DNA from: Escherichia phage N7
Strand: one strand, 5' to 3'
DNA: 38,829 nt
Sequence record: MH717096.1
Under the pieces are notes generated by a model, which saw nothing but the letters and a program-made list of their open reading frames with translations, did not search any database and was not told the origin of the DNA. This document shows positions 1-38,829 of the stretch, piece after piece. Position numbers and translations under genes: made by a program. Position 1 is the stretch's first letter; every line of letters begins with the position of its first letter.

Positions 1-423
1 TATCAAGAGGCGTATGCCGAACAGGCACGCAAACTGTGCTTGCTGGGCTACACCGATGCAGAGCTTGCTGATTTCTTCGAAGTCAGTGAGTCAACTATTA
101 ACAAGTGGAAGCTTGATTATCCTGAGTTTTCGGAGTCCATAAAAAAGGGTAAGGCCGTCGCTGATGCAGAAGTTAGTGATCGTCTTTATCAACGAGCTAT
201 GGGCTTCGTGGCTCCAGACATCGATATTCGTGTTATTGAAAACAGAATTGTCGAAACTCCGCTTGAGAAGTATTACCCGCCTGATACAACCGCCGCCATC
301 TTCTGGCTTAAGAACCGACAGAAGGATAAATGGCGCGACAAGGTTGATCACGAGCTAACAGGCAAAGACGGCGGCGCAATCCAGATTGAAACATCACCGA
401 TGAGCACTCTATTCGGAAAATGA
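1..423 (+). CDS. terminase small subunit, 3' portion (first 6 codons lie at 38812-38829)
   Basis: Frame 1 is open from nt 1; HTH-like LGYTDAELADFFEVSESTINKWK; C-terminus ...GKDGGAIQIETSPMSTLFGK matches recalled Sf6-type TerS; stop overlaps terL start (ATGA at 420-423). Confidence 0.7.
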   Translation, partial: YQEAYAEQARKLCLLGYTDAELADFFEVSESTINKWKLDYPEFSESIKKGKAVADAEVSDRLYQRAMGFVAPDIDIRVIENRIVETPLEKYYPPDTTAAIFWLKNRQKDKWRDKVDHELTGKDGGAIQIETSPMSTLFGK

Positions 424-1832
424 CCTCGATTAATCCTATCTTTGAACCGTTCATTGAGGCGCATCGCTACAAAGTCGCCAAAGGCGGTCGAGGTAGCGGT
501 AAGTCATGGGCAATTGCTAGGCTGCTTGTTGAAGCGGCGCGTCGGCAGCCTGTGCGTATTCTCTGCGCTCGTGAACTGCAAAACAGTATCAGCGATTCGG
601 TAATCCGGTTGCTTGAAGATACCATCGAGCGTGAAGGGTATTCGGCTGAGTTTGAAATTCAGCGTTCCATGATTCGTCATCTCGGAACGAATGCTGAGTT
701 CATGTTCTACGGCATCAAAAACAACCCGACGAAGATTAAATCGCTCGAAGGCATTGATATCTGCTGGGTGGAAGAAGCGGAAGCGGTAACGAAGGAATCA
801 TGGGATATCCTGATTCCAACCATCCGTAAGCCGTTCTCTGAAATATGGGTGAGCTTTAACCCGAAGAACATCCTCGACGATACTTATCAGCGATTCGTTG
901 TAAATCCTCCCGATGATATTTGCCTGCTGACGGTGAACTACACCGACAACCCGCACTTTCCTGAAGTTCTCCGTCTGGAGATGGAAGAGTGTAAACGCAG
1001 AAATCCGACACTGTATCGTCACATCTGGCTTGGTGAGCCAGTGAGCGCAAGTGATATGGCAGTCATCAAACGTGAATGGCTTGAAGCCGCAACCGATGCG
1101 CACAAGAAACTCGGATGGAAAGCGAAAGGCGCTGTTGTCTCTGCGCATGACCCATCAGATACAGGGCCAGATGCTAAAGGTTATGCATCGCGTCACGGTT
1201 CGGTTGTTAAGCGCATTGCCGAAGGTCTGCTGATGGACATCAACGAGGGTGCTGACTGGGCTACTTCGCTGGCGATTGAAGACGGCGCTGACCACTACTT
1301 GTGGGATGGTGATGGTGTTGGTGCCGGGCTACGCAGACAGACAACGGAAGCGTTCTCCGGCAAGAAAATCACCGCCACGATGTTCAAAGGCAGCGAATCG
1401 CCATTCGATGAAGATGCGCCGTATCAGGCCGGAGCATGGGCTGATGAAGTCGTACAGGGTGACAACGTTCGCACTATTGGCGATGTGTTCCGCAATAAGC
1501 GAGCGCAATTCTATTACGCGCTGGCTGACAGGTTGTATCTGACATATCGGGCGGTTGTCCACGGTGAGTATGCAGACCCCGACGACATGCTGAGCTTCGA
1601 CAAAGAAGCGATAGGCGAGAAGATGTTGGAGAAGCTGTTTGCAGAACTGACGCAGATTCAGCGCAAATTCAATAACAACGGGAAGCTGGAGCTTATGACT
1701 AAGGTCGAAATGAAGCAGAAGCTCGGTATTCCATCTCCTAACCTGGCTGATGCGCTGATGATGTGTATGCATTGCCCGGCATTGGTCCGCGAAGAAACAG
1801 AAATATACGTTCCCTCATCCTCCGGTTGGTAA
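420..1832 (+). CDS. terminase large subunit
   Basis: 470 aa ORF; N-terminal Walker A-like KVAKGGRGSGKS; sits between terS and portal; N-terminus matches recalled Sf6/P22-like TerL. Confidence 0.9.
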   Translation: MTSINPIFEPFIEAHRYKVAKGGRGSGKSWAIARLLVEAARRQPVRILCARELQNSISDSVIRLLEDTIEREGYSAEFEIQRSMIRHLGTNAEFMFYGIKNNPTKIKSLEGIDICWVEEAEAVTKESWDILIPTIRKPFSEIWVSFNPKNILDDTYQRFVVNPPDDICLLTVNYTDNPHFPEVLRLEMEECKRRNPTLYRHIWLGEPVSASDMAVIKREWLEAATDAHKKLGWKAKGAVVSAHDPSDTGPDAKGYASRHGSVVKRIAEGLLMDINEGADWATSLAIEDGADHYLWDGDGVGAGLRRQTTEAFSGKKITATMFKGSESPFDEDAPYQAGAWADEVVQGDNVRTIGDVFRNKRAQFYYALADRLYLTYRAVVHGEYADPDDMLSFDKEAIGEKMLEKLFAELTQIQRKFNNNGKLELMTKVEMKQKLGIPSPNLADALMMCMHCPALVREETEIYVPSSSGW

Positions 1833-1834
1833 AC

Positions 1835-3961
1835 ATGGCAGAGACATTAGAGAAAAAACATGAGCGGATCATGCTCAGGTTTGACCGCGCCTATTCTCCA
1901 CAGAAGGAAGTGCGCGAAAAGTGCATTGAAGCTACGAGGTTTGCTCGTGTCCCCGGAGGTCAATGGGAAGGAGCAACGGCGGCTGGAACTAAGCTTGATG
2001 AGCAGTTCGAGAAGTATCCTAAGTTTGAAATCAATAAGGTAGCAACTGAACTTAACCGCATCATTGCAGAATACCGCAATAACAGAATCACTGTTAAGTT
2101 TCGTCCTGGTGACAGAGAGGCAAGCGAAGAGTTAGCCAATAAATTAAATGGTCTGTTCCGTGCTGACTACGAAGAAACTGATGGCGGTGAGGCTTGCGAT
2201 AATGCATTTGACGACGCTGCTACTGGTGGTTTCGGTTGCTTCCGTTTGACGTCGATGCTGGTCAATGAATACGACCCCATGGACGATCGTCAGCGTATTG
2301 CTATTGAACCAATATACGACCCGTCGCGCTCTGTGTGGTTTGACCCTGACGCTAAGAAGTACGACAAATCTGACGCGTTGTGGGCGTTCTGCATGTATTC
2401 GTTGTCACCTGAAAAATATGAGGCTGAATACGGAAAGAAACCTCCTGCTTCTCTGGATGTAACGTCTATGACCAGTTGGGAATATGACTGGTTTGATGAA
2501 GATGTTATTTACATAGCGAAGTATTACGAAGTTCGTAAAGAGTCTGTTGACGTCATCAGTTATCGACATCCAATCACTGGAGAGATTGCAACATACGACA
2601 GTGATCAGGTTGAAGATATTGAAGATGAACTGGCAATAGCTGGATTTCATGAAGTGGCAAGGCGCTCAGTGAAGCGCCGTCGTGTGTATGTATCCGTAGT
2701 GGATGGTGATGGTTTCCTTGAGAAACCTCGACGTATTCCTGGTGAACATATCCCCCTCATCCCGGTTTATGGAAAACGCTGGTTCATTGATGACATTGAG
2801 CGTGTCGAAGGACATATTGCAAAAGCAATGGATCCACAGCGTTTGTATAACCTTCAGGTATCAATGCTGGCTGATACTGCAGCACAAGACCCCGGTCAGA
2901 TCCCTATAGTTGGCATGGAGCAAATTCGTGGACTTGAGAAGCACTGGGAGGCTCGCAACAAGAAACGACCAGCGTTCTTGCCGTTGCGCGAAGTGAGAGA
3001 TAAATCTGGCAACATCATCGCTGGAGCTACCCCGGCAGGATATACACAGCCCGCGATTATGAATCAGGCATTGGCTGCATTACTACAGCAAACCAGTGCT
3101 GATATTCAGGAGGTTACAGGCGGCAGTCAGGCCATGCAGCAGATGCCAAGTAATATTGCTCAGGAAACGGTTAACAACTTGATGAACAGAGCAGATATGG
3201 CTTCGTTTATCTATCTGGACAATATGGCGAAAAGTCTTAAACGCGCTGGTGAAGTATGGCTGTCAATGGCTCGTGAAGTGTACGGTTCAGAGCGTGAAGT
3301 GCGCATCGTTAACGAAGATGGAAGTGATGATATCGCTGTCCTGAGCGCACAGGTTGTTGACAGGCAAACAGGGGCTGTTGTTGCGTTAAATGACCTTTCT
3401 GTCGGTCGATACGATGTGACGGTTGATGTTGGACCAAGCTACACAGCACGACGTGATGCAACGGTTTCTGTACTGACAAATGTCCTTAGCTCTATGCTTC
3501 CAACAGACCCAATGCGTCCGGCAATTCAGGGTATTATTCTGGACAATATCGATGGCGAAGGCCTTGATGACTTCAAAGAGTACAACCGAAACCAACTGCT
3601 GATATCTGGCATTGCAAAACCACGCAATGAGAAAGAGCAGCAGATTGTTCAACAGGCGCAAATGGCAGCACAAAGCCAGCCAAATCCTGAAATGGTTCTC
3701 GCTCAGGCGCAAATGGTAGCAGCGCAGGCAGAAGCGCAAAAAGCAACTAACGAAACTGCTCAAACTCAAATCAAAGCATTTACTGCCCAGCAGGATGCGA
3801 TGGAGAGTCAGGCAAACACTGTCTATAAACTGGCTCAAGCCAGAAACATCGATGACAAAGCAGTGATGGAGGCAATACGCCTTCTGAAAGATGTCGCCGA
3901 GTCACAACAACAGCAATTCCAGTCACCACCACAGTCTCCGGCAGACTTAATGCCGAGTTAA
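1835..3961 (+). CDS. portal protein
   Basis: 708 aa from ATG 1835 just after terL stop; the ORF-track start at 1763 is an in-frame upstream extension overlapping terL; Q/A-rich C-terminal tail typical of P22-like portals. Confidence 0.85.
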   Translation: MAETLEKKHERIMLRFDRAYSPQKEVREKCIEATRFARVPGGQWEGATAAGTKLDEQFEKYPKFEINKVATELNRIIAEYRNNRITVKFRPGDREASEELANKLNGLFRADYEETDGGEACDNAFDDAATGGFGCFRLTSMLVNEYDPMDDRQRIAIEPIYDPSRSVWFDPDAKKYDKSDALWAFCMYSLSPEKYEAEYGKKPPASLDVTSMTSWEYDWFDEDVIYIAKYYEVRKESVDVISYRHPITGEIATYDSDQVEDIEDELAIAGFHEVARRSVKRRRVYVSVVDGDGFLEKPRRIPGEHIPLIPVYGKRWFIDDIERVEGHIAKAMDPQRLYNLQVSMLADTAAQDPGQIPIVGMEQIRGLEKHWEARNKKRPAFLPLREVRDKSGNIIAGATPAGYTQPAIMNQALAALLQQTSADIQEVTGGSQAMQQMPSNIAQETVNNLMNRADMASFIYLDNMAKSLKRAGEVWLSMAREVYGSEREVRIVNEDGSDDIAVLSAQVVDRQTGAVVALNDLSVGRYDVTVDVGPSYTARRDATVSVLTNVLSSMLPTDPMRPAIQGIILDNIDGEGLDDFKEYNRNQLLISGIAKPRNEKEQQIVQQAQMAAQSQPNPEMVLAQAQMVAAQAEAQKATNETAQTQIKAFTAQQDAMESQANTVYKLAQARNIDDKAVMEAIRLLKDVAESQQQQFQSPPQSPADLMPS

Positions 3962-6184: not shown

Positions 6185-6370
6185 ATGGATCGCATGAGTG
6201 TATTCCTTGCCGCAGATAACGAATCCGGGCATGTACAGGCCGTTATCGCAGAAAAAGACTTCCAGTTTTTCGAAAGGTTGGGCTTTGTTGCCTCAGTTGA
6301 TGAATTGAAACCGACCAGTAAGCGAGGTCGTAAGGCGGCGGACAATGGCAACAGTACTGACAAAGGGTGA
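6185..6370 (+). CDS. hypothetical small protein (61 aa)
   Basis: ATG preceded by AAGGAAA; overlaps start of next gene; no recognisable motif. Confidence 0.4.
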   Translation: MDRMSVFLAADNESGHVQAVIAEKDFQFFERLGFVASVDELKPTSKRGRKAADNGNSTDKG

Positions 6371-6827
6371 GATCGTCCTTTTTGCGCTTCGTAAGTTTGC
6401 TATTGCTTCTAATGCATCGCTTACTGATGTTGAGCCGCAATCAATTGAAGATGGTGTAAATGATCTGGAAGATATGATGTCCGAGTGGATGATTAACCCC
6501 GGCGACATTGGTTACGCTTTCGCAACTGGAGATGAGCAGCCATTACCAGATGATGAGTCAGGTCTTCCAAGAAAATACAAACACGCAGTAGGCTATCAGT
6601 TATTGCTGAGAATGCTATCTGATTACAGCCTTGAACCAAATCCGCAAGTTCTCAGTAACGCCCAACGCTCATATGATGCCTTGATGACCGACACTCTGGT
6701 TGTTCCTTCAATGAGACGACGTGGAGATTTTCCTGTGGGACAGGGTAATAAATATGACGTGTTTACATCTGACCGATATTATCCAGGCGATCTCCCTCTG
6801 ATTGATGGCGATATCCCAAACGCATAG
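6345..6827 (+). CDS. head-completion / tail accessory protein (P22 gp4-like)
   Basis: 160 aa; N-terminal ...ASLTDVEPQS... resembles recalled P22 gp4; position after coat. Confidence 0.6.
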   Translation: MATVLTKGEIVLFALRKFAIASNASLTDVEPQSIEDGVNDLEDMMSEWMINPGDIGYAFATGDEQPLPDDESGLPRKYKHAVGYQLLLRMLSDYSLEPNPQVLSNAQRSYDALMTDTLVVPSMRRRGDFPVGQGNKYDVFTSDRYYPGDLPLIDGDIPNA

Positions 6828-6835
6828 GTGAATAA

Positions 6836-8254
6836 ATGCCGATTCAGCAACTTCCGCTCATGAAAGGTGTCGGCAAAGACTTCCGAAATGCCGACTATAT
6901 AGACTATCTGCCAGTGAATATGCTGGCTACACCCAAAGAAATCCTGAACAGCAGCGGATATCTTCGCTCATTCCCGGGCATTGCCAAACGTTCTGATGTG
7001 AACGGTGTATCGCGCGGCGTCGAGTACAACATGGCGCAGAGTGCTGTTTATCGCGTGTGTGGTGGCAAGCTGTACAAAGGCGAAAGTGAAGTCGGTGATG
7101 TTGCCGGAAGTGGTCGCGTATCAATGGCACATGGTCGGACATCACAGGCGGTAGGTGTTAACGGGCAACTGGTCGAATACCGCTATGATGGCACGGTTAA
7201 AACCGTCTCAAACTGGCCTACAGATAGCGGATTCACTCAGTATGAGTTAGGTTCGGTTCGTGACATTACACGATTACGTGGGCGTTATGCGTGGTCAAAA
7301 GACGGCACTGATTCATGGTTTATCACTGACCTTGAAGACGAATCGCATCCTGACCGCTACAGCGCACAATATCGCGCAGAATCGCAGCCTGACGGCATCA
7401 TCGGCATAGGTACATGGCGAGACTTCATCGTCTGCTTTGGTTCATCGACGATTGAATATTTTTCCCTGACTGGTGCAACCACAGTTGGTGCTGCTTTGTA
7501 TGTCGCACAGCCATCGCTGATGGTGCAGAAAGGCATTGCCGGGACTTACTGCAAAACGCCGTTTGCTGATTCGTATGCGTTCATCAGCAATCCTGCAACA
7601 GGTGCGCCGTCTGTGTACATCATCGGCTCCGGTCAGGTGTCACCAATCGCCAGCGCGAGCATTGAGAAAATTCTCCGCTCCTACACTGCTGATGAACTGG
7701 CTGAGGGTGTGATGGAGTCTCTGCGATTTGATGCGCATGAGTTGCTGATTATCCACCTTCCTCGCCATGTTCTCGTGTACGACGCATCTTCAAGCGCCAA
7801 TGGTCCGCAATGGTGCGTACTGAAAACAGGACTGTATGACGATGTGTACCGCGCTATCGACTTCATTTATGAGGGCAATCAGATAACGTGCGGCGACAAA
7901 CTGGAATCGGTGACCGGGAAATTGCAGTTCGATATCAGCAGCCAGTACGACAAGCAACAGGAACACCTGCTGTTTACTCCGTTGTTCAAAGCGGATAACG
8001 CCAGATGTTTTGATCTGGAGGTGGAATCATCGACGGGTGTCGCTCAGTACGCCGACCGCCTGTTCCTCTCGGCAACCACTGATGGCATCAATTACGGTCG
8101 TGAGCAGATGATTGAGCAGAATGAACCGTTCGTTTACGACAAGCGTGTTTTGTGGAAGAGAGTAGGGCGCATCAGGAAAAATGTCGGCTTCAAATTGCGC
8201 GTTATCACGAAGTCACCTGTCACTCTGTCAGGCTGCCAGATAAGGATCGAGTAA
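6836..8254 (+). CDS. tail hub protein (P22 gp10-like)
   Basis: 472 aa, same length and position as P22 gp10; stop overlaps tail-needle start (TAATG). Confidence 0.65.
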
Positions 8255-9102
8255 TGGCTGATTCGAATCTCAATGAGCCGGTAATCATCCAGGCTACGCG
8301 GCTCGACACATCAGTCCTTCCACGCAATATCTTCTCGCAGTCGTATCTGCTTTACGTTATCGCACAGGGCACTGATGTTGGTAACGTGGCTAACAAGGCC
8401 AACGAGGCCGGACAGGGCGCTTATGATGCACAAGTCAGGAACGATGAGCAGGATGTGATTCTCGCTGACCATGAGCAGCGAATTTCTGCTGCAGAAGCAA
8501 CGCTTGTTAATCATGAGGAGCGAATCAGCCAGGCAGAATCAACTCTTCAGGAACATGAAACACGAATCACTCAGAATGAAAGCGATATTGCGTCGCTTGA
8601 TACCAGAGTTCAGTCGCTGGAGTCGCAGGTTTCAGACCATGAAACGCGCATTGATGCTCTGGAGTATGCAACCACACGCAAGAAGTCAGAGGTTGTTTAC
8701 TCTGGCGTATCAGTAACCATCCCGACAGCGCCGACCAACCTTGTTAGCCTGCTGAAAACGCTCACGCCGTCATCCGGGACGTTGGCACCATTCTTCGACA
8801 CTGTTAACAACAAGATGGTTGTGTTCAACGAGAACAAAACCTTGTTCTTCAAGCTGTCGATCGTCGGGACGTGGCCCAGCGGAACCGCCAACAGGTCAAT
8901 GCAGCTAACCTTTTCCGGCTCTGTTCCTGACACACTGGTAAGCAGTCGCAACTCGGCGACAACGACCGATAACATCCTGTTAGCTACGTTCTTCAGCGTG
9001 GATAAAGACGGCTTTCTTGCCACAAATGGCAGCACGTTAACCATTCAGTCGAATGGTGCGTCGTTTACTGCCACAACCATCAAGATAATCGCGGAGCAGT
9101 AA
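8254..9102 (+). CDS. tail needle protein (P22 gp26-like) with extended C-terminal domain
   Basis: ATG at 8254 gives [43 protein letters not shown], close to recalled gp26 N-terminus; heptad-like [18 protein letters not shown] repeats; about 50 aa longer than P22 gp26. Confidence 0.7.
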
Positions 9103-9557
9103 TGATTCAGTTCAAACCAACGCGAAACATCGACCTGATAGAAGCAGTCGGAAATCACCCTGACATTATTGCCGGGAGCAACAACGGCGATGGATACGAC
9201 TACAAACCTGATTGCCGTTACTTTGAGGTGAACGTGCACGGGCAGTTTGGCGGCATTGTTTACTATCAGGAGATTCAGCCGCTTACATTCGATTGCCACG
9301 CCATGTACCTGCCAGAGGTTCGTGGATTCAGCAAGGAAATCGGGCTGGAGTTCTGGAAATACATTCTGACTAACACCACCGTTCAGTGTGTCACATCGTT
9401 TGCTGCACGCAAATTCCGTCACGGGCAGATGTACTGCGCAATGATTGGCCTTAAGCGTGTAGGGACCATCAAGAAATACTTCAAAGGCGTGGATGACGTG
9501 ACGTTTTACAGCGCCACACGCGAAGAACTAATCGACTTCCTGAATCACGGGAGATAG
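9102..9557 (+). CDS. virion-associated protein (gp14-position)
   Basis: 151 aa ORF at the gene-14 position of the P22 order (26-14-7-20-16); assignment is positional only. Confidence 0.45.
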   Translation: MIQFKPTRNIDLIEAVGNHPDIIAGSNNGDGYDYKPDCRYFEVNVHGQFGGIVYYQEIQPLTFDCHAMYLPEVRGFSKEIGLEFWKYILTNTTVQCVTSFAARKFRHGQMYCAMIGLKRVGTIKKYFKGVDDVTFYSATREELIDFLNHGR

Positions 9558-9559
9558 CC

Positions 9560-10252
9560 ATGTTATATGCATTTAAACTGGGCAGAAAACTGCGCGGTGA
9601 GGAACCTTATTGCCCTGAAAAAGGCGGGAAAGGTGGCAGTTCTGATAAAAGCGCAAAGTATGCAGCAGAAGCTCAGAAGTATGCCGCAGACCTGCAAAAT
9701 CAGCAGTTCAACACCATCATGAATAACCTGAAGCCGTTTACTCCTCTGGCTGAGAAGTATGTCGGCAGCCTCGAAAACTTATCGTCTCTGGAGGGGCAAG
9801 GTCAGGCACTTAACCAGTATTACAACTCTCAGCAGTATAAAGACCTTGCAGGTCAGGCTCGCTATCAGAGTCTGGCGGCAGCGGAAGCAACAGGTGGATT
9901 GGGTTCCACCGCAACCAGTAATCAGTTAGCAACAATCGCACCAACGCTTGGTCAGCAATGGCTATCTGGACAAATGAACAATTACAACAACCTGGCAAAT
10001 ATCGGTCTTGGCGCTCTTCAGGGACAGGCAAACGCCGGGCAAACATATGCCAACAACATGAGTCAGATTTCGCAGCAAAGTGCGGCTCTTGCAGCGGCAA
10101 ATGCCAACAGACCATCAGCAATGCAATCTGCTATTGGCGGAGGTGCGTCTGGTGCTATTGCTGGGGCCGGACTTGCGAAATTAATTGGTTCATCAACTCC
10201 GTGGGGGGCTGCGATCGGCGGCGGTCTTGGTCTGCTTGGCTCGTTGTTTTAA
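9560..10252 (+). CDS. ejection protein (P22 gp7-like)
   Basis: 230 aa; Q/N/A/G-rich with glycine-rich hydrophobic C-terminus; size and position match gp7. Confidence 0.6.
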   Translation: MLYAFKLGRKLRGEEPYCPEKGGKGGSSDKSAKYAAEAQKYAADLQNQQFNTIMNNLKPFTPLAEKYVGSLENLSSLEGQGQALNQYYNSQQYKDLAGQARYQSLAAAEATGGLGSTATSNQLATIAPTLGQQWLSGQMNNYNNLANIGLGALQGQANAGQTYANNMSQISQQSAALAAANANRPSAMQSAIGGGASGAIAGAGLAKLIGSSTPWGAAIGGGLGLLGSLF

Positions 10253-10262
10253 GGGGTAATCA

Positions 10263-23529: not shown

Positions 23530-23542
23530 GATTTTCTCCTGA

Positions 23543-24022: not shown

Positions 24023-24031
24023 ATTCAGCTC

Positions 24032-28267: not shown

Positions 28268-28304
28268 CTGCCAATCTGTTCCGTTTGGCTACCAGCGTCC
28301 TGCT

Positions 28305-28395: not shown

Positions 28396-28410
28396 ATTTT
28401 TAAAGGAAAT

Positions 28411-28436
28411 AAAAAAAAGGGGCGAATGCCCCCTTA
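28411..28436 (-). terminator. rho-independent terminator downstream of repressor gene
   Basis: Minus-strand GC-rich hairpin (GGGGC-ATTC-GCCCC) followed by TTTTTTTT. Confidence 0.6.
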
Positions 28437-29084: not shown

Positions 29085-29164
29085 AGTTAAGACATCTTAA
29101 ATAAACTTGACTTAAGATTCCTTTAGTGGATAATTTAAGTGTTCTTTAATTTCGGAGCGAGTCT
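29085..29164. promoter_or_regulatory. OR operators with pRM/pR
   Basis: Operator-like TTAAGACATCTTAA and AATTTAAGTGTTCTTTAATT; pR TTGACT (29107-29112) and GATAAT (29129-29134). Confidence 0.6.
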
Positions 29165-29350
29165 ATGTACAAGAAAGATGTTATCGACCACTTCGGAACC
29201 CAGCGTGCTGTAGCTAAAGCGTTAGGCATTAGCGACGCAGCAGTCTCTCAGTGGAAGGAAGTCATCCCAGAGAAAGACGCCTATCGACTGGAAGTCGTTA
29301 CAGCTGGCGCCCTGAAGTATCAAGAAAGCGCTTACCGCAAAGCGGCATAA
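29165..29350 (+). CDS. cro: Cro
   Basis: 61 aa MYKKDVIDHFGTQRAVAKALGISDAAVSQWKEVIPEKDAYRLE..., near-identical to recalled P22 Cro. Confidence 0.9.
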   Translation: MYKKDVIDHFGTQRAVAKALGISDAAVSQWKEVIPEKDAYRLEVVTAGALKYQESAYRKAA

Positions 29351-29357
29351 GCAAATT

Positions 29358-29400
29358 GCTCTTTAACAGTCATGGTCCTCATTCCCGCCGAAATGCGGGA
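29358..29400 (+). promoter_or_regulatory. nutR (boxA + boxB)
   Basis: GCTCTTTAACA followed by hairpin TCCCGC-CGAAAT-GCGGGA between cro and c1. Confidence 0.55.
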
Positions 29401-29458
29401 ATACAACGCGCATAAGTTGATGCGCATAACTTCTTATTTGTTAAGGAAATACTTACAT

Positions 29459-29737
29459 ATGGAACTTACAAGTACTCGCAAGAAAGCGAATGCAATTACA
29501 AGCAACATCCTGAATCGAATTGCTGTACGTGGTCAGCGAAAGGTTGCCGACGCGTTAGGGATTAATGAATCGCAAATTTCGCGATGGAAAGACAGCTTCA
29601 TCCCAAAAATGGGAATGCTTCTTGCTGTTCTTGAATGGGGTGTTGAAGACGAGGAGTTGGCGGAACTGGCTAAGAAAGTAGCCAGAATGCTGACAAAAGA
29701 AAAAGCCCCGAAGAACGGCGAATTCTTCGAGGCCTGA
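29459..29737 (+). CDS. c1: C1 (lambda CII analogue)
   Basis: ATG at 29459 after AAGGAAA gives 92 aa MELTSTRKKANAITSNILNRIAVRGQRKVADALGINESQISRWK..., matching recalled P22 C1. Confidence 0.8.
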   Translation: MELTSTRKKANAITSNILNRIAVRGQRKVADALGINESQISRWKDSFIPKMGMLLAVLEWGVEDEELAELAKKVARMLTKEKAPKNGEFFEA

Positions 29738-29771
29738 TGTAGAAAGACTGGATCAATCCACAGGAGTCATT

Positions 29772-30617
29772 ATGACAAATACAGCAAAAATACTCAACTT
29801 CGGCAGAGGTAACTTTGCCGAACAGGAGCTAAGAGTGGCTGATATCGATGATGGTTACACCAGATTCGCTAACGAGCTGCTGGAAGCTATCGCAAGTGCC
29901 GATTTAACCGCTCGCCAGTTGAAAGTTATGCTGGCCTACGTCCGGAAAACATATGGCTTCAATAAGAAAACAGATCGAATAGCCGATGAGCAAATTGCTC
30001 AGTTAACAGGACTGTCAAGGCAGAATGTTAACAAGGCTAAAAAAGAACTGATTTCAATGAATTGCCTGTTTATGGATGGAAATCAAATCGGTGTAAACAG
30101 GGAGGTATCTGCGTGGCAATTCAGCAAGTGTCTCCAAGTTAGCAACTTTGTCTCGAAGTTAGAGACAAAAAGTGTCTCCAAATTAGAGACACTCAATGTC
30201 TCGAAGTTAGAGACACACAAAAGACATTCTTTAAAGACAAAAGAAAATATTAATAAACCCCCTATATCCCCCAAAAAAGTTTCTCAGAAGTTCGACCCGC
30301 TAGAAACAGAGTTGCCTGATTGGTTATCAGCAGAAACATGGTTGTCGTGGGTTACCTATCGCAAGGAGATAGGTAAGTCGATCAAGTCTAAGCAAAGTGT
30401 CACTCAGGCTATCAACGTTCTATGCAGAAGTCTGGAGAAGGGATATACACCTGAAGAAATTATAAACCAGAGCATCGCCAGTGGTTGGCAGGGTATTTTT
30501 GAGCCCAAGACTCCAAAGGGGAAATCTCAACCGAGGCCGCAGCATCGAGCTATGCAGGAAAACTTTGCCACCAAAGATTACGGACAAACTGAAATGCCTT
30601 CATGGGCGCAGGAGTGA
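29772..30617 (+). CDS. O: replication initiator (lambda O / P22 gene 18 type)
   Basis: N-terminus MTNTAKILNFGRGNFAEQE... matches recalled lambda O; iterons lie inside the gene. Confidence 0.8.
   Translation: MTNTAKILNFGRGNFAEQELRVADIDDGYTRFANELLEAIASADLTARQLKVMLAYVRKTYGFNKKTDRIADEQIAQLTGLSRQNVNKAKKELISMNCLFMDGNQIGVNREVSAWQFSKCLQVSNFVSKLETKSVSKLETLNVSKLETHKRHSLKTKENINKPPISPKKVSQKFDPLETELPDWLSAETWLSWVTYRKEIGKSIKSKQSVTQAINVLCRSLEKGYTPEEIINQSIASGWQGIFEPKTPKGKSQPRPQHRAMQENFATKDYGQTEMPSWAQE
30129..30215. repeat. origin iterons (4 x ~19 bp, consensus TGTCTCSAARTTAGAGACA, 24-bp period)
   Basis: Repeats begin at 30129, 30149, 30173, 30197; followed by an AT-rich stretch 30216-30270. Confidence 0.65.
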
Positions 30618-30619
30618 AC

Positions 30620-31465
30620 ATGACGCTGGATGAAAAGATCTCCCAACTGGAGAAAAAACTTGCAGAATTGAGTTCTCCGCCAATTGCTATCGAGCATACA
30701 GCTGTAGAAATTGGCACTGGCATCTGTGAAAAACATGGTGAGTTTGAGCAGCGTAACCGTTACTCGACTGGGCCAATTAAGTTTGCCTCAAGACCTAGCG
30801 AATGCCCGGAATGCATGAGAGATGAGCTTATTCGGCTACAGGCAGAGAAGATTAAAATCGACGAGGAATCACGTAAGCGCAATGTCGAGTTTCTGTTGAA
30901 TAATCTTGATATTCCTGAACGATTCAAGGGTTGCACACTACAGAACTACGAGCCAGTCAACGACGATGCAAAGAGAGTGCTCAGGGTGTGTCAGGCATAC
31001 GCCAGCAAATGGCCTGAGAGGTTACAGAAAGGCGGTGGGCTGGTTATGTGTGGAAAGCCTGGTACTGGAAAGAATCATCTTGCACTGGCTATCGCCCGGC
31101 ACGCAATTACGGAACATCAAAGCTCAGCTATTTTCACAACGGCGCTGAAAATTGCCAGAGAATATAAATCAACATGGTCGAAAAACTCCACCCGCACAGA
31201 GGATGAAGTGATCCGACAGTTCACTAAACCTGACCTGCTAATTATCGATGAGGTTGGTGTGCAGTTCGGAAGCGAGGCGGAAAAGATGATCATGTTCGAA
31301 ATCATCAACACCCGCTACGAGCGCATGAAGCCAACAATCCTGATTAGCAACCAGAGCAAAGATGAACTGTCTGCATTCATTGGTGAGCGTGTTATTGACA
31401 GGATGAATGATGGCGGCGGATGCACTCTTGCGTTTACATGGGATAGTTACAGGAGCAGAACGTGA
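30620..31465 (+). CDS. DnaC-like helicase loader (AAA+ ATPase)
   Basis: ATG at 30620 after GGAGTGA; Walker A GKPGTGKNHLA and Walker B LLIIDEVG; immediately follows O. Confidence 0.8.
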   Translation: MTLDEKISQLEKKLAELSSPPIAIEHTAVEIGTGICEKHGEFEQRNRYSTGPIKFASRPSECPECMRDELIRLQAEKIKIDEESRKRNVEFLLNNLDIPERFKGCTLQNYEPVNDDAKRVLRVCQAYASKWPERLQKGGGLVMCGKPGTGKNHLALAIARHAITEHQSSAIFTTALKIAREYKSTWSKNSTRTEDEVIRQFTKPDLLIIDEVGVQFGSEAEKMIMFEIINTRYERMKPTILISNQSKDELSAFIGERVIDRMNDGGGCTLAFTWDSYRSRT

Positions 31466-31777: not shown

Positions 31778-31809
31778 AGGCCTGCTGATAATCGCAGGCC
31801 TTTTTATTT
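31778..31809 (+). terminator. rho-independent terminator (tR2-like)
   Basis: Perfect 8-bp stem AGGCCTGC / GCAGGCCT, 8-nt loop, then TTTTTATTT. Confidence 0.7.
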
Positions 31810-31825
31810 GGGGGAGAGGGAAGTC

Positions 31826-32266
31826 ATGAAAAAACTAACCTTTGAAATTCGATCTCCGGCACATCAGCAAAACGCTATTCACGCAGTACAGCAAATCCTT
31901 CCAGACCCAACCAAGCCAATCGTAGTGATCATTCAGGAGCGCAACCGCAGCTTAGACCAGAATCGGAAGCTTTGGGCTTGCCTTGGTGACGTCTCTCGTC
32001 AGGTTGAATGGCATGGTCGCTGGCTGGATGCAGAAAGCTGGAAGTGTGTGTTTACCGCAGCATTAAAGCAGCAGGACGTTGTTCCTAACCTTGCCGGGAA
32101 TGGCTTTGTGGTAATAGGCCAGTCAACCAGCAGGATGCGTGTAAACGAATTTGCGGAGCTATTAGAGCTTATACAGGCATTCGGTACAGAGCGTGGCGTT
32201 AAGTGGTCAGACGAAGCGCGACTGGCTCTCGAATGGAAAGCGCGATGGGGAGATCGGGCTGCATGA
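31826..32266 (+). CDS. ninB: NinB (Orf-family recombination mediator)
   Basis: ATG at 31826 (MKKLTFEIRSPAHQQNAIHAV...), about 146 aa like lambda NinB; first nin-region gene. Confidence 0.7.
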   Translation: MKKLTFEIRSPAHQQNAIHAVQQILPDPTKPIVVIIQERNRSLDQNRKLWACLGDVSRQVEWHGRWLDAESWKCVFTAALKQQDVVPNLAGNGFVVIGQSTSRMRVNEFAELLELIQAFGTERGVKWSDEARLALEWKARWGDRAA

Positions 32267-32790
32267 CTATCAAATCAAATACGCCAGCACACGACAAGGA
32301 CTGCTGGCAAACGCCGCTTTGGCTTTTTGATGCACTGGATATTGAGTTTGGATTCTGGCTGGATTCGGCAGCGAGCGACAAAAATGCTCTGTGCGCTCAC
32401 TGGTTAACTGAGGCCGACGACGCGCTCAATTCTGAGTGGATAAGCCACGGTGCAATCTGGAATAACCCACCGTACAGCAATATCAGGCCGTGGGTGGAGA
32501 AAGCCGCTGAGCAGTGCATACAACAGCGACAGACGGTAGTGATGCTTGTGCCAGAGGATATGTCAGTCGGATGGTTCAGCAAGGCTCTGGAGAGTGTTGA
32601 CGAAGTTCGTATTATCACTGATGGACGGATTAATTTTATCGAACCATCGACAGGGCTGGAGAAAAAGGGAAACAGCAAAGGATCCATGCTGCTGATTTGG
32701 CGACCGTTCATCAGTCCTCGACGGATGTTTACTACCGTATCCAAAGTGGCATTGATGGCGATCGGGCAGGGCGTCAGGAGGGCGGCATGA
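32263..32790 (+). CDS. phage orphan N6-adenine DNA methyltransferase (Dam-like)
   Basis: ATG overlaps ninB stop; NPPY motif (IWNNPPYSN) typical of N6-adenine methyltransferases. Confidence 0.7.
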
Positions 32791-32963
32791 GGCGACAGCG
32801 ACGAAGTATCACCGACATAATCTGCGAAAACTGCAAATACCTTCCAACGAAACGCTCCAGAAATAAACGCAAGCCAATCCCAAAAGAATCTGACGTAAAA
32901 ACCTTCAACTACACGGCTCACCTGTGGGATATCCGGTGGCTAAGACATCGTGCGAGGAAATGA
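32787..32963 (+). CDS. NinE-like small protein
   Basis: ATGA overlap with dam stop; [27 protein letters not shown]... resembles recalled lambda NinE. Confidence 0.5.
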
Positions 32964-33325
32964 CAATGGATTATTCACAGTTAAGTGATTTTGAAATTAA
33001 CGTGGTGGTATTCGAAGCCATTCATAACGGATCACCGGATTACAAAGAAGGTGAGAATGGCGATATGGTGTTTGTCTCATTTGAGGGAGACATTGTAAAC
33101 GGAGACGCAGTTGAAGTAGAAGTTGAGCGCGGATCCTTTAACCCATGCGCAAACCCAGCAGACGCATGGCCGATTATTGAAAAATACAGGATTAGCATTA
33201 TCAATCTCGATGAAGACGAGTGGGGTGCACGCGGTGTGGCCTACTGTAAATCTAAGCGAGCTATACATAAAAATCCCCTTCGCGCCGCCATGATTGTCTT
33301 TCTCATGATGCAGAGAATCCAATAA
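32960..33325 (+). CDS. hypothetical nin-region protein
   Basis: ATG at 32960 overlaps previous stop; acidic about 120 aa. Confidence 0.5.
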
Positions 33326-33501
33326 TGCTTAGCCCATCCCAATCCCTTCAATACCAGAAAGAAAGCGTCGAGCGGGCTTTAACGTGCGCTAACTGCGGCC
33401 AGAAGCTGCATGTGCTGGAAGTTCACGTGTGCTCCGATTGCTGCGCAGAACTGATGAGCGATCCGAATAGCTCAATGTACGAGGAAGAAGACGATGAATG
33501 A
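33325..33501 (+). CDS. NinF-like small Cys-rich protein (58 aa; not in ORF track)
   Basis: TAATG overlap with upstream stop; [40 protein letters not shown]..., resembles recalled lambda NinF; stop overlaps next start. Confidence 0.45.
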   Translation: MLSPSQSLQYQKESVERALTCANCGQKLHVLEVHVCSDCCAELMSDPNSSMYEEEDDE

Positions 33502-34216
33502 GTTAATAAATGGCAATGCCATCAAAATGACAAGCATTGAAATCGCTGAGTTGGTGGGTAAGCGTCATGACAATGTGAAACGTACCATCGAAACGCTGGC
33601 TAAAAATGGTGTTATCCGGCTTCCTCAAATTGAGGTTTCCGAAAGAATCAATAACTTAGGGTTCAATGTTCAGTACGAGCATTACGTCTTCGAGGGCGAA
33701 CAAGGTAAGCGAGACAGTATTGTCGTTGTTGCCCAGTTGTCGCCAGAGTTCACCGCTCGCCTTGTTGACCGTTGGCGAGAGCTTGAAGAAGCTGCGGTTA
33801 ATATCCCCAAAACGCTACCGGAAGCGTTGCGCCTTGCTGCTGATCTTGCTGAGCAGAAAATGCAGCTGGAAAACCAGCTCGCAATTGCCGCACCTAAAGT
33901 TGAGTTTGCCGATCGCGTTGGCGAGGCCAGCGGAATTTTGATTGGAAACTTTGCAAAGGTTGTTGGAATTGGTCCAAACAAACTGTTTGCGTGGATGCGC
34001 GATCACAAAATCCTTATTGCTTCAGGTTCCCGGCGCAATGTGCCAATGCAGGAATATATGGATCGCGGCTATTTCACAGTGAAAGAAACAGCGGTCAACA
34101 CAAATCACGGAATACAGATATCGTTCACTACAAAAATCACCGGACGTGGCCAACAGTGGCTGACCAGAAAGCTGCTCGATAACGGAATGCTGAAAGTAAC
34201 CGGGGAGGCTGCTTAA
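33494..34216 (+). CDS. Rha-family regulatory protein with KilAC-like C-domain (antirepressor-like)
   Basis: N-terminal MTSIEIAELVGKRHDNVKRTIETL fits the Rha family; C-terminal part resembles antirepressor domains. Confidence 0.6.
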   Translation: MNELINGNAIKMTSIEIAELVGKRHDNVKRTIETLAKNGVIRLPQIEVSERINNLGFNVQYEHYVFEGEQGKRDSIVVVAQLSPEFTARLVDRWRELEEAAVNIPKTLPEALRLAADLAEQKMQLENQLAIAAPKVEFADRVGEASGILIGNFAKVVGIGPNKLFAWMRDHKILIASGSRRNVPMQEYMDRGYFTVKETAVNTNHGIQISFTTKITGRGQQWLTRKLLDNGMLKVTGEAA

Positions 34217-34506
34217 TGGCTAACCTACGCAAAGAAGCACGCGGCAGAGAATGCCAGGTACGTATTTACGGCGTATGCAATGGCAACCCTGAAACTACAG
34301 TTCTGGCACATTACCGGATGGCTGGAATTTGCGGAACGGGAATGAAGCCTGACGACCTGATCGGCGCATGGGCTTGTAGTGACTGCCACGCGGAGATCGA
34401 CCGACGCACCCATAACCTCGACAACAAAGACGCCAGACTTTACCACCTCGAAGGCGTGATCAGGACGCAGGCGATACTGCTGAAGGAGGGGAAGATTAAG
34501 CCATGA
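34216..34506 (+). CDS. hypothetical Cys/His-rich protein (96 aa)
   Basis: C..C...C..C..H pattern suggests metal binding; TAATG overlap with the Rha gene. Confidence 0.5.
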   Translation: MANLRKEARGRECQVRIYGVCNGNPETTVLAHYRMAGICGTGMKPDDLIGAWACSDCHAEIDRRTHNLDNKDARLYHLEGVIRTQAILLKEGKIKP

Positions 34507-34865
34507 ACGAATATCAGTTTGTGCTTCCATACCCACCGTCGCTGAATACCTACTGGCGAAGACGGGGAAGCCAATACTACATCAGCGATAAAGGCCAGAA
34601 ATACCGAAAAGACGTTCAGCAAATCATCCGCCAACTTAAGTTAGACATTTTCACCAAATCACGACTCCGCATCAAAGTCATCGCAGACGTTCCAGACTCC
34701 CGCCGCCGCGACCTCGACAACATCCTGAAAGGTTTACTCGACTCCCTTATCCACGCCGGATTTGCGGAAGACGACGAGCAATTCGATGACATTCGCGTAA
34801 TTCGTGGTGTGAAAGTACCAGGTGGAAGGCTTGAAATAAAAATCACCGAACTGGAGAACGCATGA
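34503..34865 (+). CDS. rusA: Holliday-junction resolvase RusA
   Basis: 120 aa; DSRRRDLDNILKGLLDSL and ...GGRLEIKITEL match recalled RusA catalytic motifs. Confidence 0.85.
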   Translation: MNEYQFVLPYPPSLNTYWRRRGSQYYISDKGQKYRKDVQQIIRQLKLDIFTKSRLRIKVIADVPDSRRRDLDNILKGLLDSLIHAGFAEDDEQFDDIRVIRGVKVPGGRLEIKITELENA

Positions 34866-35050
34866 ACGCCACAATTCAAACGATACCAGAGCTTCTTATC
34901 CAGACACGAGGCAATCAGACCGAAGTGGCGAGGATGCTTTCCTGCGCAAGAGGAACAGTGCTCAAGTACAACCGAGACAGCAAAGGCGAGCGTCACGTAA
35001 TAGTTAACGGCGTCCTGATGGTCAAACAGGGCAAGAGGGGAAGACGATGA
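34862..35050 (+). CDS. NinH-like small DNA-binding protein
   Basis: 62 aa; HTH-like QTEVARMLSCARGTVLKY; ATGA overlaps on both sides. Confidence 0.5.
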   Translation: MNATIQTIPELLIQTRGNQTEVARMLSCARGTVLKYNRDSKGERHVIVNGVLMVKQGKRGRR

Positions 35051-35670
35051 GACTCGAAAGCGTAGCTAAATTTCATTCGCCAAAAAGCCCGATGATGAGC
35101 GACTCACCACGGGCCACGGCTTCTGACTCTCTTTCAGGTACTGATGTGATGGCTGCTATGGGGATGGCGCAATCACAAGCCGGATTCGGAATGGCTGCAT
35201 TCTGCGGTAAGCATGAACTCAGCCAGAACGACAAACAAAAGGCTATCAACTATCTGATGCAATTTGCACACAAGGTATCGGGGAAATACCGTGGTGTGGC
35301 AAAGCTTGAAGGAAATACTAAGGCAAAGGTACTGCAAGTTCTCGCAACATTCGCTTATGCGGATTATTGCCGTAGTGCCGCGACGCCGGGCGCAAGATGC
35401 AGAGATTGCCACGGTACAGGTCGGGCAGTTGATATAGCCAAAACAGAGCAGCGGGGGAGAGTTGTTGAGAAAGAGTGCGGAAGATGCAAAGGTGTCGGCT
35501 ATTCAAGGATGCCAGCAAGCGCCGCATATCGCGCTGTGACGATGCTAATCCCAAATCTTACCCAACCCACCTGGTCACGCACTGTTAAGCCGCTGTATGA
35601 CGCTCTGGTGGCGCAATGCCACAAAGAAGAGTCAATCGCAGACAACATTTTGAATGCGGTCACACGTTAG
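35047..35670 (+). CDS. Q: late antiterminator Q (lambda type)
   Basis: 207 aa; MRLESVAKFHSPKSPMMSDSPRATASD... and zinc-finger CRDCHGTGR...CGRCKG match recalled lambda Q. Confidence 0.9.
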   Translation: MRLESVAKFHSPKSPMMSDSPRATASDSLSGTDVMAAMGMAQSQAGFGMAAFCGKHELSQNDKQKAINYLMQFAHKVSGKYRGVAKLEGNTKAKVLQVLATFAYADYCRSAATPGARCRDCHGTGRAVDIAKTEQRGRVVEKECGRCKGVGYSRMPASAAYRAVTMLIPNLTQPTWSRTVKPLYDALVAQCHKEESIADNILNAVTR

Positions 35671-36742: not shown

Positions 36743-37066
36743 ATGAAGATGCCAGAAAAACATGACCTGTTAGCCGCCATTCTCGCGGCAAAGGAACAAG
36801 GCATCGGGGCAATCCTTGCGTTTGCAATGGCGTACCTTCGCGGCAGATATAATGGCGGTGCGTTTACAAAAACAGTAATCGACGCAACGATGTGCGCCAT
36901 TATCGCCTGGTTCATTCGTGACCTTCTCGACTTCGCCGGACTAAGTAGCAATCTCGCTTATATAACTAGCGTGTTCATCGGCTACATCGGTACTGACTCG
37001 ATTGGTTCGCTTATCAAACGCTTCGCTGCTAAAAAAGCCGGAGTAGAAGATGGTGGAAATCAATAA
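36743..37066 (+). CDS. S: holin S (dual-start)
   Basis: 107 aa [34 protein letters not shown]... matches recalled lambda S; Met1-Lys2-Met3 dual start. Confidence 0.9.
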
Positions 37067-37526
37067 TCAACGTAAGGCGTTCCTCGATATGCTGGCGTGG
37101 TCAGAGGGGACAGATAACGGACGTCAGAAAACCAGAAATCATGGTTATGACGTCATTGTTGGCGGAGAGCTATTTACTGATTACTCCGATCACCCTCGCA
37201 AACTTGTCACGCTAAACCCAAAACTCAAATCAACAGCCGCCGGACGTTACCAGCTTCTTTCCCGTTGGTGGGATGCCTACCGCAAGCAGCTTGGCCTGAA
37301 AGACTTCTCTCCTAAAAGCCAGGATGCTGTTGCATTGCAGCAGATTAAGGAGCGTGGCGCTTTACCGATGATTGACCGCGGTGATATTCGTCAGGCTATC
37401 GACCGTTGCAGCAATATCTGGGCTTCACTGCCGGGCGCTGGTTATGGTCAGTTCGAGCATAAGGCTGACAACCTGATTGCAAAATTCAAAGAAGCTGGCG
37501 GAACGGTCAGAGAGATTGAGATATGA
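37050..37526 (+). CDS. R: endolysin R (lytic transglycosylase)
   Basis: 158 aa [34 protein letters not shown]... matches recalled lambda R; overlaps S. Confidence 0.9.
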
Positions 37527-37960
37527 GCAGAGTAACCGCGATTATCTCCGCTCTGGTTATCTGCATCATCGTCTGCCTGTCATGGGCTGTTAATCATTAC
37601 CGTGATAATGCAATCGCCTACAAAGAGCAGCGCGATAAAGCCACATCCACAATCGCTGACATGCAGAAGCGTCAACGTGATGTAGCAGAACTAGACGCCA
37701 GATATACAAAGGAGCTTGCTGATGCTAACGCGACTATCGAAAGTCTCCGTGATGATGTTTCTGCTGGGCGTAAGCGCCTGCAAGTCGCCGCCACCTGTGC
37801 AAAGTCAACGACCGGAGCCAGCGGCATGGGCGATGGAGAAAGCCCAAGACTTACAGCAGATGCTGAACTCAATTATTACCGTCTCCGAAGTGGAATCGAC
37901 AGGATAACCGCGCAGGTTAACTACCTGCAGGAGTACATCAGGACGCAATGCCTGAAATAA
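37523..37960 (+). CDS. Rz: spanin inner-membrane subunit Rz
   Basis: [30 protein letters not shown]... N-terminal TM then coiled coil, as in lambda Rz. Confidence 0.8.
37722..37907 (+). CDS. Rz1: spanin outer-membrane lipoprotein Rz1 (embedded in +1 frame of Rz)
   Basis: ATG at 37722 after AAGGAG; signal peptide with lipobox LLGVSA|C; proline-rich mature part. Confidence 0.6.
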
Positions 37961-38272: not shown

Positions 38273-38566
38273 TCATTACAAAGCCCATCTACGGGTGGGC
38301 TTGATAATGAAACCGGAATTTATTCTGGGAAACCAGTTACGGCAGTACCGCGAAACAACCCAAGCCAGTAAGTGGGGAAATAACACTGGCAGCCACTGAA
38401 AGATGAACCTCCAGCCTTATGGCAAAAAAGATTCTTTGTGGTGGCGGACTGATGGAAAGACATCGGTTATTGCAGAGGCCATTCAATGAGTGGTCTCGAC
38501 AATGGCTTATACCCTACACGGGATAACTTAACTGATATCCCTTTTAACGGATAAACGGAGCCAACA

Positions 38567-38809
38567 ATGGCAGAGATTATTCCCATGACTGAAGAACAGA
38601 AATTCAAGTTAGAAATTTACCGACTGCTATCTAAGAACAATTCAGCGGCAGAGGAAGCTTTTGCATTCATTGGTGCTGACCAACTGAAACTGGAATTGTT
38701 CAAGTTGCACTACAATGATGGCGGTGCAAATCCAGACTTCACATCTCGCACTATCGAAGCGGTGCGTAAATCGAAGGAAGCGTTAGACCTGTTCACCACC
38801 GGAGCATAA
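38567..38809 (+). CDS. hypothetical protein (80 aa) upstream of terS
   Basis: SD GGAG before ATG; stop 2 nt before the terS ATG at 38812. Confidence 0.45.
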   Translation: MAEIIPMTEEQKFKLEIYRLLSKNNSAAEEAFAFIGADQLKLELFKLHYNDGGANPDFTSRTIEAVRKSKEALDLFTTGA

Positions 38810-38811
38810 AC

Positions 38812-38829
38812 ATGGCGCGCCCAACAAAG
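38812..38829 (+). CDS. terminase small subunit, first 6 codons (MARPTK), continuing at nt 1
   Basis: ATG GCG CGC CCA ACA AAG ends exactly at the window end; frame 1 from nt 1 continues without a stop to 423. Confidence 0.5.

Follow-up and report, generated by a model that had tools for sequence, protein, structure and literature searches.

The window, the whole stretch of DNA analysed here, holds 38,829 bp (46.6% GC) and amounts to a full genome, one unit in length, of a temperate podophage. The phage is P22-like, falls in the Sf6/CUS-3/HK620 subgroup (genus Lederbergvirus) and has E. coli or Shigella as host. The reading that very probably accounts for the record as a whole is that of a complete genome whose circle was opened by numbering it in the frame of Shigella phage Sf6 (AF547987 / NC_005344); headful packaging, the mechanism of such phages, accounts for the circularity of the sequence. 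The small-terminase gene, terS, is divided between the two ends of the record, and this split is an artefact of record-keeping, that is, of linearisation.

As for the split gene, positions 38812..38829 on the plus strand (ATGGCGCGCCCAACAAAG) hold an ATG and five further codons (MARPTK), carried over to the far end of the linear record and in frame with nt 1; the remainder, 140 codons plus a stop, lies at 1..423 (+) and encodes a small terminase of the CUS-3 type. Joined in silico, the two pieces form a 441-nt ORF of 146 aa plus stop (147 codons), just as the earlier note had proposed when it read the last 18 nt and the open frame at nt 1 as a single terS of about 147 codons. The ATG has a GGAG ribosome-binding site 7 nt 5′ of it, and the stop of an hkbM-like DUF2560 gene (38567..38809, +; phrog_571, E 2e-35; Pfam DUF2560, E 5.5e-37) lies 2 nt before it; this gene precedes terS on the circle, the same position that it has in CUS-3 and Sf6. 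On the other side, terS is placed immediately upstream of terL and is translationally coupled to it through a stop/start overlap, ATGA (420-423).

Searched against TerS families, as had been suggested with the original observation, the junction protein matched phrog_309 (terminase small subunit) with an E value of 2.1e-68 over residues 1-142, the match starting at residue 1. It was identical to the annotated CUS-3 TerS (ABQ88402) at 146 of 146 positions, so that all six residues of MARPTK are those of the CUS-3 N-terminus; judged by sequence comparison, the family match and this identity are far beyond chance. No Pfam model matched the joined TerS. A genome-wide search for a second terS found none, leaving the joined gene as the only significant TerS locus and disposing of the idea of a complete copy elsewhere. 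The ORF listing of the linear record has at this locus only a TTG-initiated ORF of 127 aa (40..423).

The two ends are also continuous in related DNA. Bases 38829 and 1 align to the adjacent bases 22688 and 22687 of the CUS-3 prophage (CP000711), in which the hkbM-terS-terL junction is uninterrupted at 94% identity. The 58 nt across the join recur without a mismatch in the interior of 26 IMG/VR contigs, each of which aligns through the join in one piece (0.67-3.6 kb, 89-98% identity), and an 881-nt junction runs without interruption through seven phage records (91-94% identity). A terminal direct repeat of 8-199 nt was sought at the record ends and none was found; in place of a defined end, a terminal repeat or a cohesive end at nt 1 / 38829, the ends abut perfectly inside a gene. 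Since the ends join perfectly, a source contig continuing into unrelated DNA is disfavoured, as far as this is testable, and the earlier view of the window as a whole, circularly closed phage genome is borne out both by the join and by the adjacency of the two end bases in CUS-3.

Completeness was judged from gene content and from collinearity with relatives. For this, PHROGs was searched with 53 ORFs and Pfam with ten of the same ORFs; the working gene set comprised the scanned ORFs, two genes as annotated in Sf6 (6185-6370 and 8254-9102) and the 18-nt head of terS; it covers 89% of the window, with a largest unassigned gap of at most 547 nt. Every module was found in the PHROG scan, which bears out the claim of a complete P22-like gene content. 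The length lies within the range of the relatives (Sf6, 39,043; HK620, 38,297; CUS-3, 40,207). In the phage collection searched there was no near-full-length match, the best coverage being 58-63%; all top database matches were to Lederbergvirus.

The virion genes follow one another from 38812 across the join to 13681 as homologues of terS-terL-portal-scaffold-coat-gp4-gp10-gp26-gp14-gp7-gp20-gp16, in that order, by PHROG match. The large terminase gene terL (420..1832, +) is of the Sf6 type (Pfam Terminase_3, E 3e-41; phrog_3717, E 9e-90; 95-100% DNA identity to Sf6), and it is followed on the same strand by the genes for portal (1835-3961; E 1.5e-221), scaffolding (3975-4859; E 6e-106) and coat (4871-6142; major head, E 1e-115), with the coordinates of Sf6 genes 3, 4 and 5, respectively. 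The head-completion and tail-hub genes (homologues of P22 gp4, gp10, the gp26 needle and gp14) and three ejection genes (homologues of gp7, gp20 and gp16) occupy 6345..13681 (+), with PHROG E values from 1e-68 to 9e-230. Downstream of the ejection-protein genes come an immI-like region (14931..16429), with an Arc/Mnt-like repressor at 14931-15170 (−) and an antirepressor, Ant, within 15428-16429 (+), and the tailspike (16530..18659, +; phrog_8846, E 1e-281), which has a conserved P22-type N-terminal head-binding domain: many tailspike families match over residues 1-120, and its RefSeq homologues are annotated as "phage head-binding domain-containing protein" or as tailspike.

The rest of the genome holds a lambdoid early region (int/xis, recombination, N, cI, cro, cII, replication, nin and Q) and a holin-endolysin-Rz cassette. 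The integration module (19557..21164, −) has an IntS-type integrase (19557-20750), an attP core (20875-20890) and a TorI-like excisionase (20964-21164), with matches to phrog_1 (E 6e-81) and phrog_66; the core at 20875 equals the attP core annotated in Sf6 and the 3′ end of argW, and the match to the UTAK-15 prophage stops at this core, beside a tRNA-Arg. Recombination genes (abc2, an endonuclease-like gene, SSB and Erf) lie at 23236..25213 (−). Immunity and replication functions span 27814..31465, with N at 27814-28119 (−), cI at 28434-29084 (−), cro, cII, an O-like gene and a DnaC-like loader. The nin region (NinB, a DNA methyltransferase, NinX, Roi/Ant-like, HNH-like, RusA, NinH) and the late antiterminator Q (35047-35670) fill 31808..35670 (+), and the lysis cassette of holin, endolysin and Rz spanin is at 36743..37960 (+).

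Between 46 and 52% of the window aligns to CUS-3 and Sf6 at 83-99% identity. Sf6, with ~52% aligned overall, has the same type of TerL, portal, scaffold, coat and head-completion genes, and the same type of IntS integrase, attP core and xis (97% over window 19564-21273); it differs in the gp20 and gp16 ejection proteins, the tailspike and the immunity region, its cI being 434-like whereas that of the window is P22/CUS-3-like. The window has the immI region with ant, absent from Sf6, and lacks the oac gene, IS911 and the tRNAs of Sf6. CUS-3, a K1-specific E. coli prophage at argW, is collinear in gene order from its nt 16 (the attL end) to 40207 (the last base of its record), nearly the whole prophage record, and reaches 99.6% identity in the cI-cro region (window 28134-29462). 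CUS-3 has, however, its own type of coat, scaffold and portal, with a weak DNA match or none over window 2245-6825, and, unlike the window, an endosialidase tailspike, a replication module with a DnaB-type P, and another Q. The CUS-3 record, entered as a prophage, opens at att and is without the 293-bp xis segment. Salmonella phage P22 shares the genome architecture, with terS directly upstream of terL, and belongs to a headful family with pac in terS; its TerS (gene 3) is of a sequence type unrelated to that of the window.

Regarding the position of base 1, the first ~10.25 kb of the window and of Sf6 have the same coordinate frame and gene order. In Sf6 (AF547987), gene 1 occupies 1..423 and gene 2 occupies 420..1832; in the window, the terS stop is at 423 and terL at 420..1832; Sf6 genes 2-11 have coordinates identical to those of their window counterparts, genes 3-11 ending at 3961, 4859, 6142, 6370, 6827, 8254, 9102, 9557 and 10252, exactly where window ORFs end. 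One BLAST alignment pairs window 335-10277 with Sf6 335-10276 at 96.4% identity; compared without gaps, the two sequences are 94-100% identical over nt 401-2500, versus ~21-29%, the random level, over nt 1-300. Base 1 of the window is not a gene start (nt 1-3 are TAT, no start codon). The records of Sf6, Gally and Huey each open at the ATG of a 423-nt terS (1..423), and that of HF4s numbers terS as 14..436. For permuted phages, setting base 1 at the terminase genes is an explicit community convention (PMC5000459).

These coordinates suggest how the record probably arose. Headful packaging would yield circularly permuted, terminally redundant virion DNA, whose reads would close into a circle that has no end of its own. 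Such a circle would then have been linearised in the Sf6 frame, which counts from the A of the ATG that opens a 423-nt terS. The CUS-3-type allele, at 441 nt, is 18 nt longer at its 5′ end and has only its last ~90 nt in common with the Sf6 allele; counting 423 nt back from the shared stop places the cut after codon 6 and wraps the first six codons to the end of the record. The break lies inside terS only because the CUS-3 allele is 18 nt longer than that of Sf6. The coordinate coincidence points to Sf6 itself, or a relative numbered as Sf6 is, as the reference for the rotation: an arbitrary break would fall at exact Sf6 base 1 with a chance of ~1 in 38,829, or a few in 10,000 when several possible reference genomes are allowed for.

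Two other origins of the ends deserve weighing. Assemblers open circular contigs anywhere, and ends without overlap would also be left by an arbitrary assembler cut that happened to fall 18 nt into terS; however, such a cut, made in the right orientation and matching Sf6 numbering exactly over the first ~10.25 kb, has a chance of ~1 in 78,000, and we consider it very improbable. The window might instead be a partial or prophage-derived segment whose ends only seem to join, given that its close relatives are prophages at argW and that mosaic remnants exist, FDN-24 among them. A prophage excerpt would nevertheless end at attP (~20875-20890) and not in terS, CUS-3 and 26 other contigs have the two ends side by side, and every module is present; this origin is the least probable of those considered. 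E. coli FDN-24, whose tailspike copy is 99.3% identical, had been a candidate full-length prophage for the completeness test and was dropped as a degraded mosaic remnant beside dacD; CUS-3 and UTAK-15 were used in its place.

The earlier note had also linked the opening point to pac. A further reading would make it a physical genome end, with terminase cutting at or beside pac at terS codon 6 and the record opened at a mapped terminus. P22-like phages do have their pac sites inside terS, in P22 gene 3 (PMC8022706, PMC9611059), and headful packaging gives permuted ends without a unique terminus (PMC8402733). The one precisely mapped pac of the group, that of P22, lies ~265 bp into gene 3 (PMC8022706). 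Its 22-bp asymmetric sequence (AGAGAAGATTTATCTGAAGTCG) was sought on both strands of the window with up to 3 mismatches and gave 0 matches, as one would expect of a terS allele that has no relationship to P22 gene 3. In Sf6, pac was reportedly placed by Leavitt et al. in 2013 in the part of terS coding for the N-terminal DNA-binding domain, the segment that contains the break; the Sf6 initiation cuts are reported, in the work of Casjens in 2004 and Leavitt in 2013, to be spread over about 2 kb.

Against a physical end stand this spread, the permutation of headful ends, the window's want of terminal redundancy, the position of the P22 site, the absence of its 22-mer, and the break being Sf6 coordinate 1 exactly, for which a biological cut in a different allele would have no reason; such an end is very unlikely. 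With the break at exact Sf6 base 1 and the P22 site ~265 bp into its gene, the proposed link between opening point and pac is not supported, and the break position carries no information on where pac is. We give equally little credence to the idea that this phage, unlike Sf6, starts its packaging series with a precise cut at terS codon 6, base 1 of the record being a mapped end and its match to Sf6 numbering a coincidence; if true, this would show where pac is cleaved in phages with a CUS-3-type TerS, for which we know of no mapping.

Headful packaging in N7 itself would follow from its Sf6-type TerL (Pfam Terminase_3; 95-100% DNA identity to Sf6 gene 2), and by analogy with its relatives pac is probably somewhere in the N7 terS. 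A scan of synonymous variation for pac among 12 distinct CUS-3-type terS alleles, the first 43 nt being fixed by the search pattern, gave only 28 variable sites; the one invariant 30-nt bin beyond the search pattern was terS nt 241-270, with a chance probability of ~0.12.

The terS gene is modular. DNA homology to Sf6 starts at nt 335, so that the segment common to both, the C-terminal tail, is 335..423 (+); the C-terminal 38 aa match the solved Sf6 gp1 (PDB 3HEF, 4DYC; E 5e-11), and the last 25 of these residues are identical to Sf6. The body (residues 1 to ~119) is in Sf6 another allele, not alignable at the DNA level, and the N-terminal parts gave no significant BLASTP match to Sf6 gp1 (E 0.18). 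A single-sequence AlphaFold model of the 140-residue part predicted residues 2-54 to be helical, with a mean pLDDT of 49.7, too low for a fold search. The joint at about nt 335-342 is a recurrent site of recombination: three contigs (L013, L018 and L025) share terS only up to nt 342 and then have other tails and other TerL types, and among the other contigs compared the TerS tail changes whenever TerL changes. In Sf6 and P22 the TerS tail physically binds TerL, and the comparisons made here indicate that the C-terminal segment is one pairing with its cognate TerL.

In conclusion, the phage is a mosaic that is ordinary for its group. Gene callers run on the linear record will miss or truncate terS, and later analyses are to treat the window as a complete circular genome with its ends joined; the position of the break should be taken neither for a pac site nor for a physical end. 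N7 presumably packages by headful from a pac in its own terS, and TerS is modular, its body travelling apart from the tail that matches its TerL, as is textbook for this phage group.

The two ends of the window form one gene, terS, encoding the small terminase; it lies on the plus strand at 38812-38829 + 1-423, is 441 nt long, and encodes 146 aa followed by a TGA stop at 421-423. The final 18 nt (ATG GCG CGC CCA ACA AAG) continue in frame into the ORF open from nt 1; the ATG has a GGAG ribosome-binding site 7 nt upstream and starts 2 nt after the stop of a DUF2560/hkbM-like gene (38567-38809), and the terS stop overlaps the start of the large-terminase gene, terL, in an ATGA at 420-423. ORF finding on the linear window returned only a truncated 127-aa TTG ORF (40..423) for terS. 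Regarding its identity, the joined protein matched phrog_309 (small terminase) from residue 1 (E 2.1e-68) and is identical at 146/146 positions to the annotated TerS of CUS-3, a K1-specific E. coli prophage; no Pfam model matched it. Proteins of this CUS-3 type are labelled "HNH homing endonuclease" or "hypothetical protein" in several phage genomes (MN340231, ON470589, ON470594, LC768498).

As for the join itself, an 881-nt query across it is found uninterrupted in 7 phage records, with CUS-3 at 94.1%; the exact 58-nt join sequence is internal to 26 IMG/VR contigs, and in 26/26 one alignment of 0.67-3.6 kb spans the joining point at 89-98% identity. The CUS-3 prophage aligns at 23186..22688 with window 38332..38829 and at 22687..20436 with window 1..2244; 22688 and 22687 are adjacent, therefore the last and first bases of the window are neighbours. 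No terminal direct repeat occurs in the window. Judged from these three independent lines of sequence evidence, the join is real, and the record comprises a circular sequence exactly once. Translated searches with the window TerS and the TerS of Shigella phage Sf6 found the wrapped locus only, so that the complete second terS that would have contradicted the earlier note's single gene of about 147 codons is absent from the window.

Fifty-three ORFs were scanned against PHROGs, and 10 of these against Pfam too; by these assignments the module order is the canonical one of P22. The scan identified the packaging and head genes (terS, terL, portal, scaffold, coat), head completion and tail genes (homologues of P22 gp4, gp10, the needle gp26 and gp14, with three ejection proteins), an accessory immI region with an Arc/Mnt-like repressor and Ant, a tailspike for host recognition, its head-binding N-terminus conserved, recombination genes (abc2, SSB, Erf), and regulation and replication genes (ral, N, cI, cro, cII, an O-like initiator, a DnaC-like loader). 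Integration is represented by an IntS-type integrase, attP and a TorI-like excisionase, and late functions by nin genes (NinB, methyltransferase, NinX, Roi-like, RusA, NinH), Q, holin, endolysin and Rz. With the 18-nt terS head and two genes placed from the Sf6 annotation (6185-6370 and 8254-9102) counted in, the gene set used here covers 89% of the window; the biggest gap without an assigned gene is 547 nt, at a position occupied in Sf6 by kil, cIII and further small genes. The length, 38,829 bp, falls between HK620 (38,297) and Sf6 (39,043), with CUS-3 at 40,207. The reading of the window as a whole P22-like phage genome, complete in gene content, is thus supported. All the defining features of a P22-like phage and of a TerS that sequence can test were found, except that the N-terminal HTH fold stays putative: the N-terminal part gave E 0.18 against Sf6 gp1 in BLASTP, and a single-sequence AlphaFold model had a mean pLDDT of 49.7. 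Headful packaging and pac recognition would apply to N7 by analogy.

The position at which the record opens is best explained as a record-keeping artefact, a reference-guided rotation into Sf6 numbering. In Sf6 (AF547987), gene 1 (terS, 140 aa) lies at 1..423 and gene 2 at 420..1832, and genes 3-11 end at 3961, 4859, 6142, 6370, 6827, 8254, 9102, 9557 and 10252, the same numbers as the window ORFs; one BLAST alignment joins window 335-10277 to Sf6 at 96.4%. Ungapped identity is 21-29% (random level) over nt 1-300 and 94-100% over nt 401-2500. The window terS is of CUS-3 type, 441 nt, and its match to that of Sf6 is confined to the final ~90 nt; a count of 423 nt back from the shared stop ends after codon 6. 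Nt 1-3 read TAT and therefore could not have been chosen as a start codon. Relatives are numbered likewise (Gally and Huey, terS 1..423; HF4s, terS 14..436), and an explicit convention places the start of permuted genomes at the terminase genes (PMC5000459). The probability that an arbitrary assembler break matches the Sf6 frame is about 1/38,829; an opening in prophage form would be expected at attP, and the window opens in terS instead.

This bears on the one part of the earlier note that did not stand, namely the suggestion that the opening point marks pac, the packaging-initiation site; its whole genome, single terS and completeness stood. Headful packaging fills each head with ~104% of the genome and ends with a non-specific cut, giving permuted molecules (PMC8402733), and therefore an assembled genome without a unique end; the break is Sf6 coordinate 1. 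The P22 pac, a 22-bp sequence within gene 3 at ~bp 265 (PMC8022706; PMC9611059), has no counterpart in the window at up to three mismatches, as expected of a TerS type unrelated to that of P22. Suppression of synonymous variation as a pac locator was underpowered with 12 terS alleles. The Sf6 pac reportedly lies in the terS part encoding the DNA-binding domain, and the series-initiation cuts of Sf6 reportedly spread over ~2 kb; by analogy, the pac of N7 is probably within the 5' two-thirds of its own terS. Its predicted proximity to the break is due to the numbering convention, and the break itself is no evidence.

N7 is a new mosaic combination: the best record in the phage collection covers at most 58-63% of either of two large queries, window 1-25000 and an overlapping 20000-38829. 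Its modules were all known already, as were the TerS protein and the splitting of a gene by linearisation. A 171-aa orphan ORF (18697-19212, minus strand) between tailspike and int had no Pfam match and a marginal PHROG match, and after it comes a stretch (~19349-19423) that RefSeq labels a GtrA pseudogene fragment in a 99.3%-identical segment of E. coli FDN-24; the usual O-antigen-modification cassette (gtrABC or acyltransferase) appears lost or replaced at 18697-19556. The FDN-24 locus (NZ_CP158147 2493808-2509025) is a degraded P22-like prophage remnant adjoining dacD; it keeps a tailspike region that matches window 16400-19617 at 99.3% identity and is linked to a truncated ejection-protein gene and rearranged early-left genes. 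A 173-aa HNH endonuclease (35994-36515; phrog_59, E 6e-58) lies between Q and holin, where Sf6 instead has tRNA-Asn and tRNA-Thr; no tRNA gene occurs anywhere in the window. The nin region holds a second, small HNH-family ORF (34216-34506; phrog_131). Two accessory genes are the DNA methyltransferase of the nin region (32203-32790, plus strand; phrog_111, E 5e-88) and, in the ea region, a gene (21466-22233, minus strand) whose product fuses DUF551 to a dATP/dGTP pyrophosphohydrolase domain (PF04447, E 6e-42). Three consecutive minus-strand ORFs of 106, 170 and 115 aa (13690-14931), between the last ejection-protein gene and the Arc/Mnt-like repressor, and a 340-aa homologue of Sf6 gene 33 in the early-left operon (25761-26783, minus strand) matched PHROG families without known function and no Pfam domain.

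The 16-nt attP core annotated in Sf6 lies at 20875-20890, and the match to an argW-integrated prophage of E. coli UTAK-15 stops exactly there, followed by tRNA-Arg and yfdC. The 3' half of the argW tRNA-Arg is present in the window as two pieces 293 bp apart, the acceptor end (20876-20890, overlapping the attP core) and the T-arm (21184-21199); contiguous in tRNA-Arg, they bracket the TorI-like xis (20964-21164). In CUS-3 the T-arm piece is the annotated "att core" at both ends of the prophage record and the 293-bp xis segment is missing; either that annotation omits the true right end, or there are two alternative crossover sites.

Finally, TerS body and tail behave in sequence comparisons as separate modules. 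Sf6 TerS has the C-terminal tail of the window and an unrelated body; three contigs (L013, L018, L025) carry three further tails on the window's body (residues 1 to ~119), and the TerL proteins that follow resemble the window's at 64%, at about 38% or hardly at all; and a fourth (L010) has the window's tail with a 99.6%-identical TerL. The joint falls at window nt 335-342 (residue ~119) in every case compared. One N-terminal body is thus seen fused to at least four C-terminal tails, each with a different TerL type. Such a recurrent recombination joint inside terS fits the known modular exchange and the published model (Leavitt et al. 2013) in which the TerS body and the pac it recognises are reportedly exchanged horizontally and the tail couples TerS to TerL. 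N7 would then be predicted to have the packaging specificity of CUS-3 driving an Sf6-type motor.
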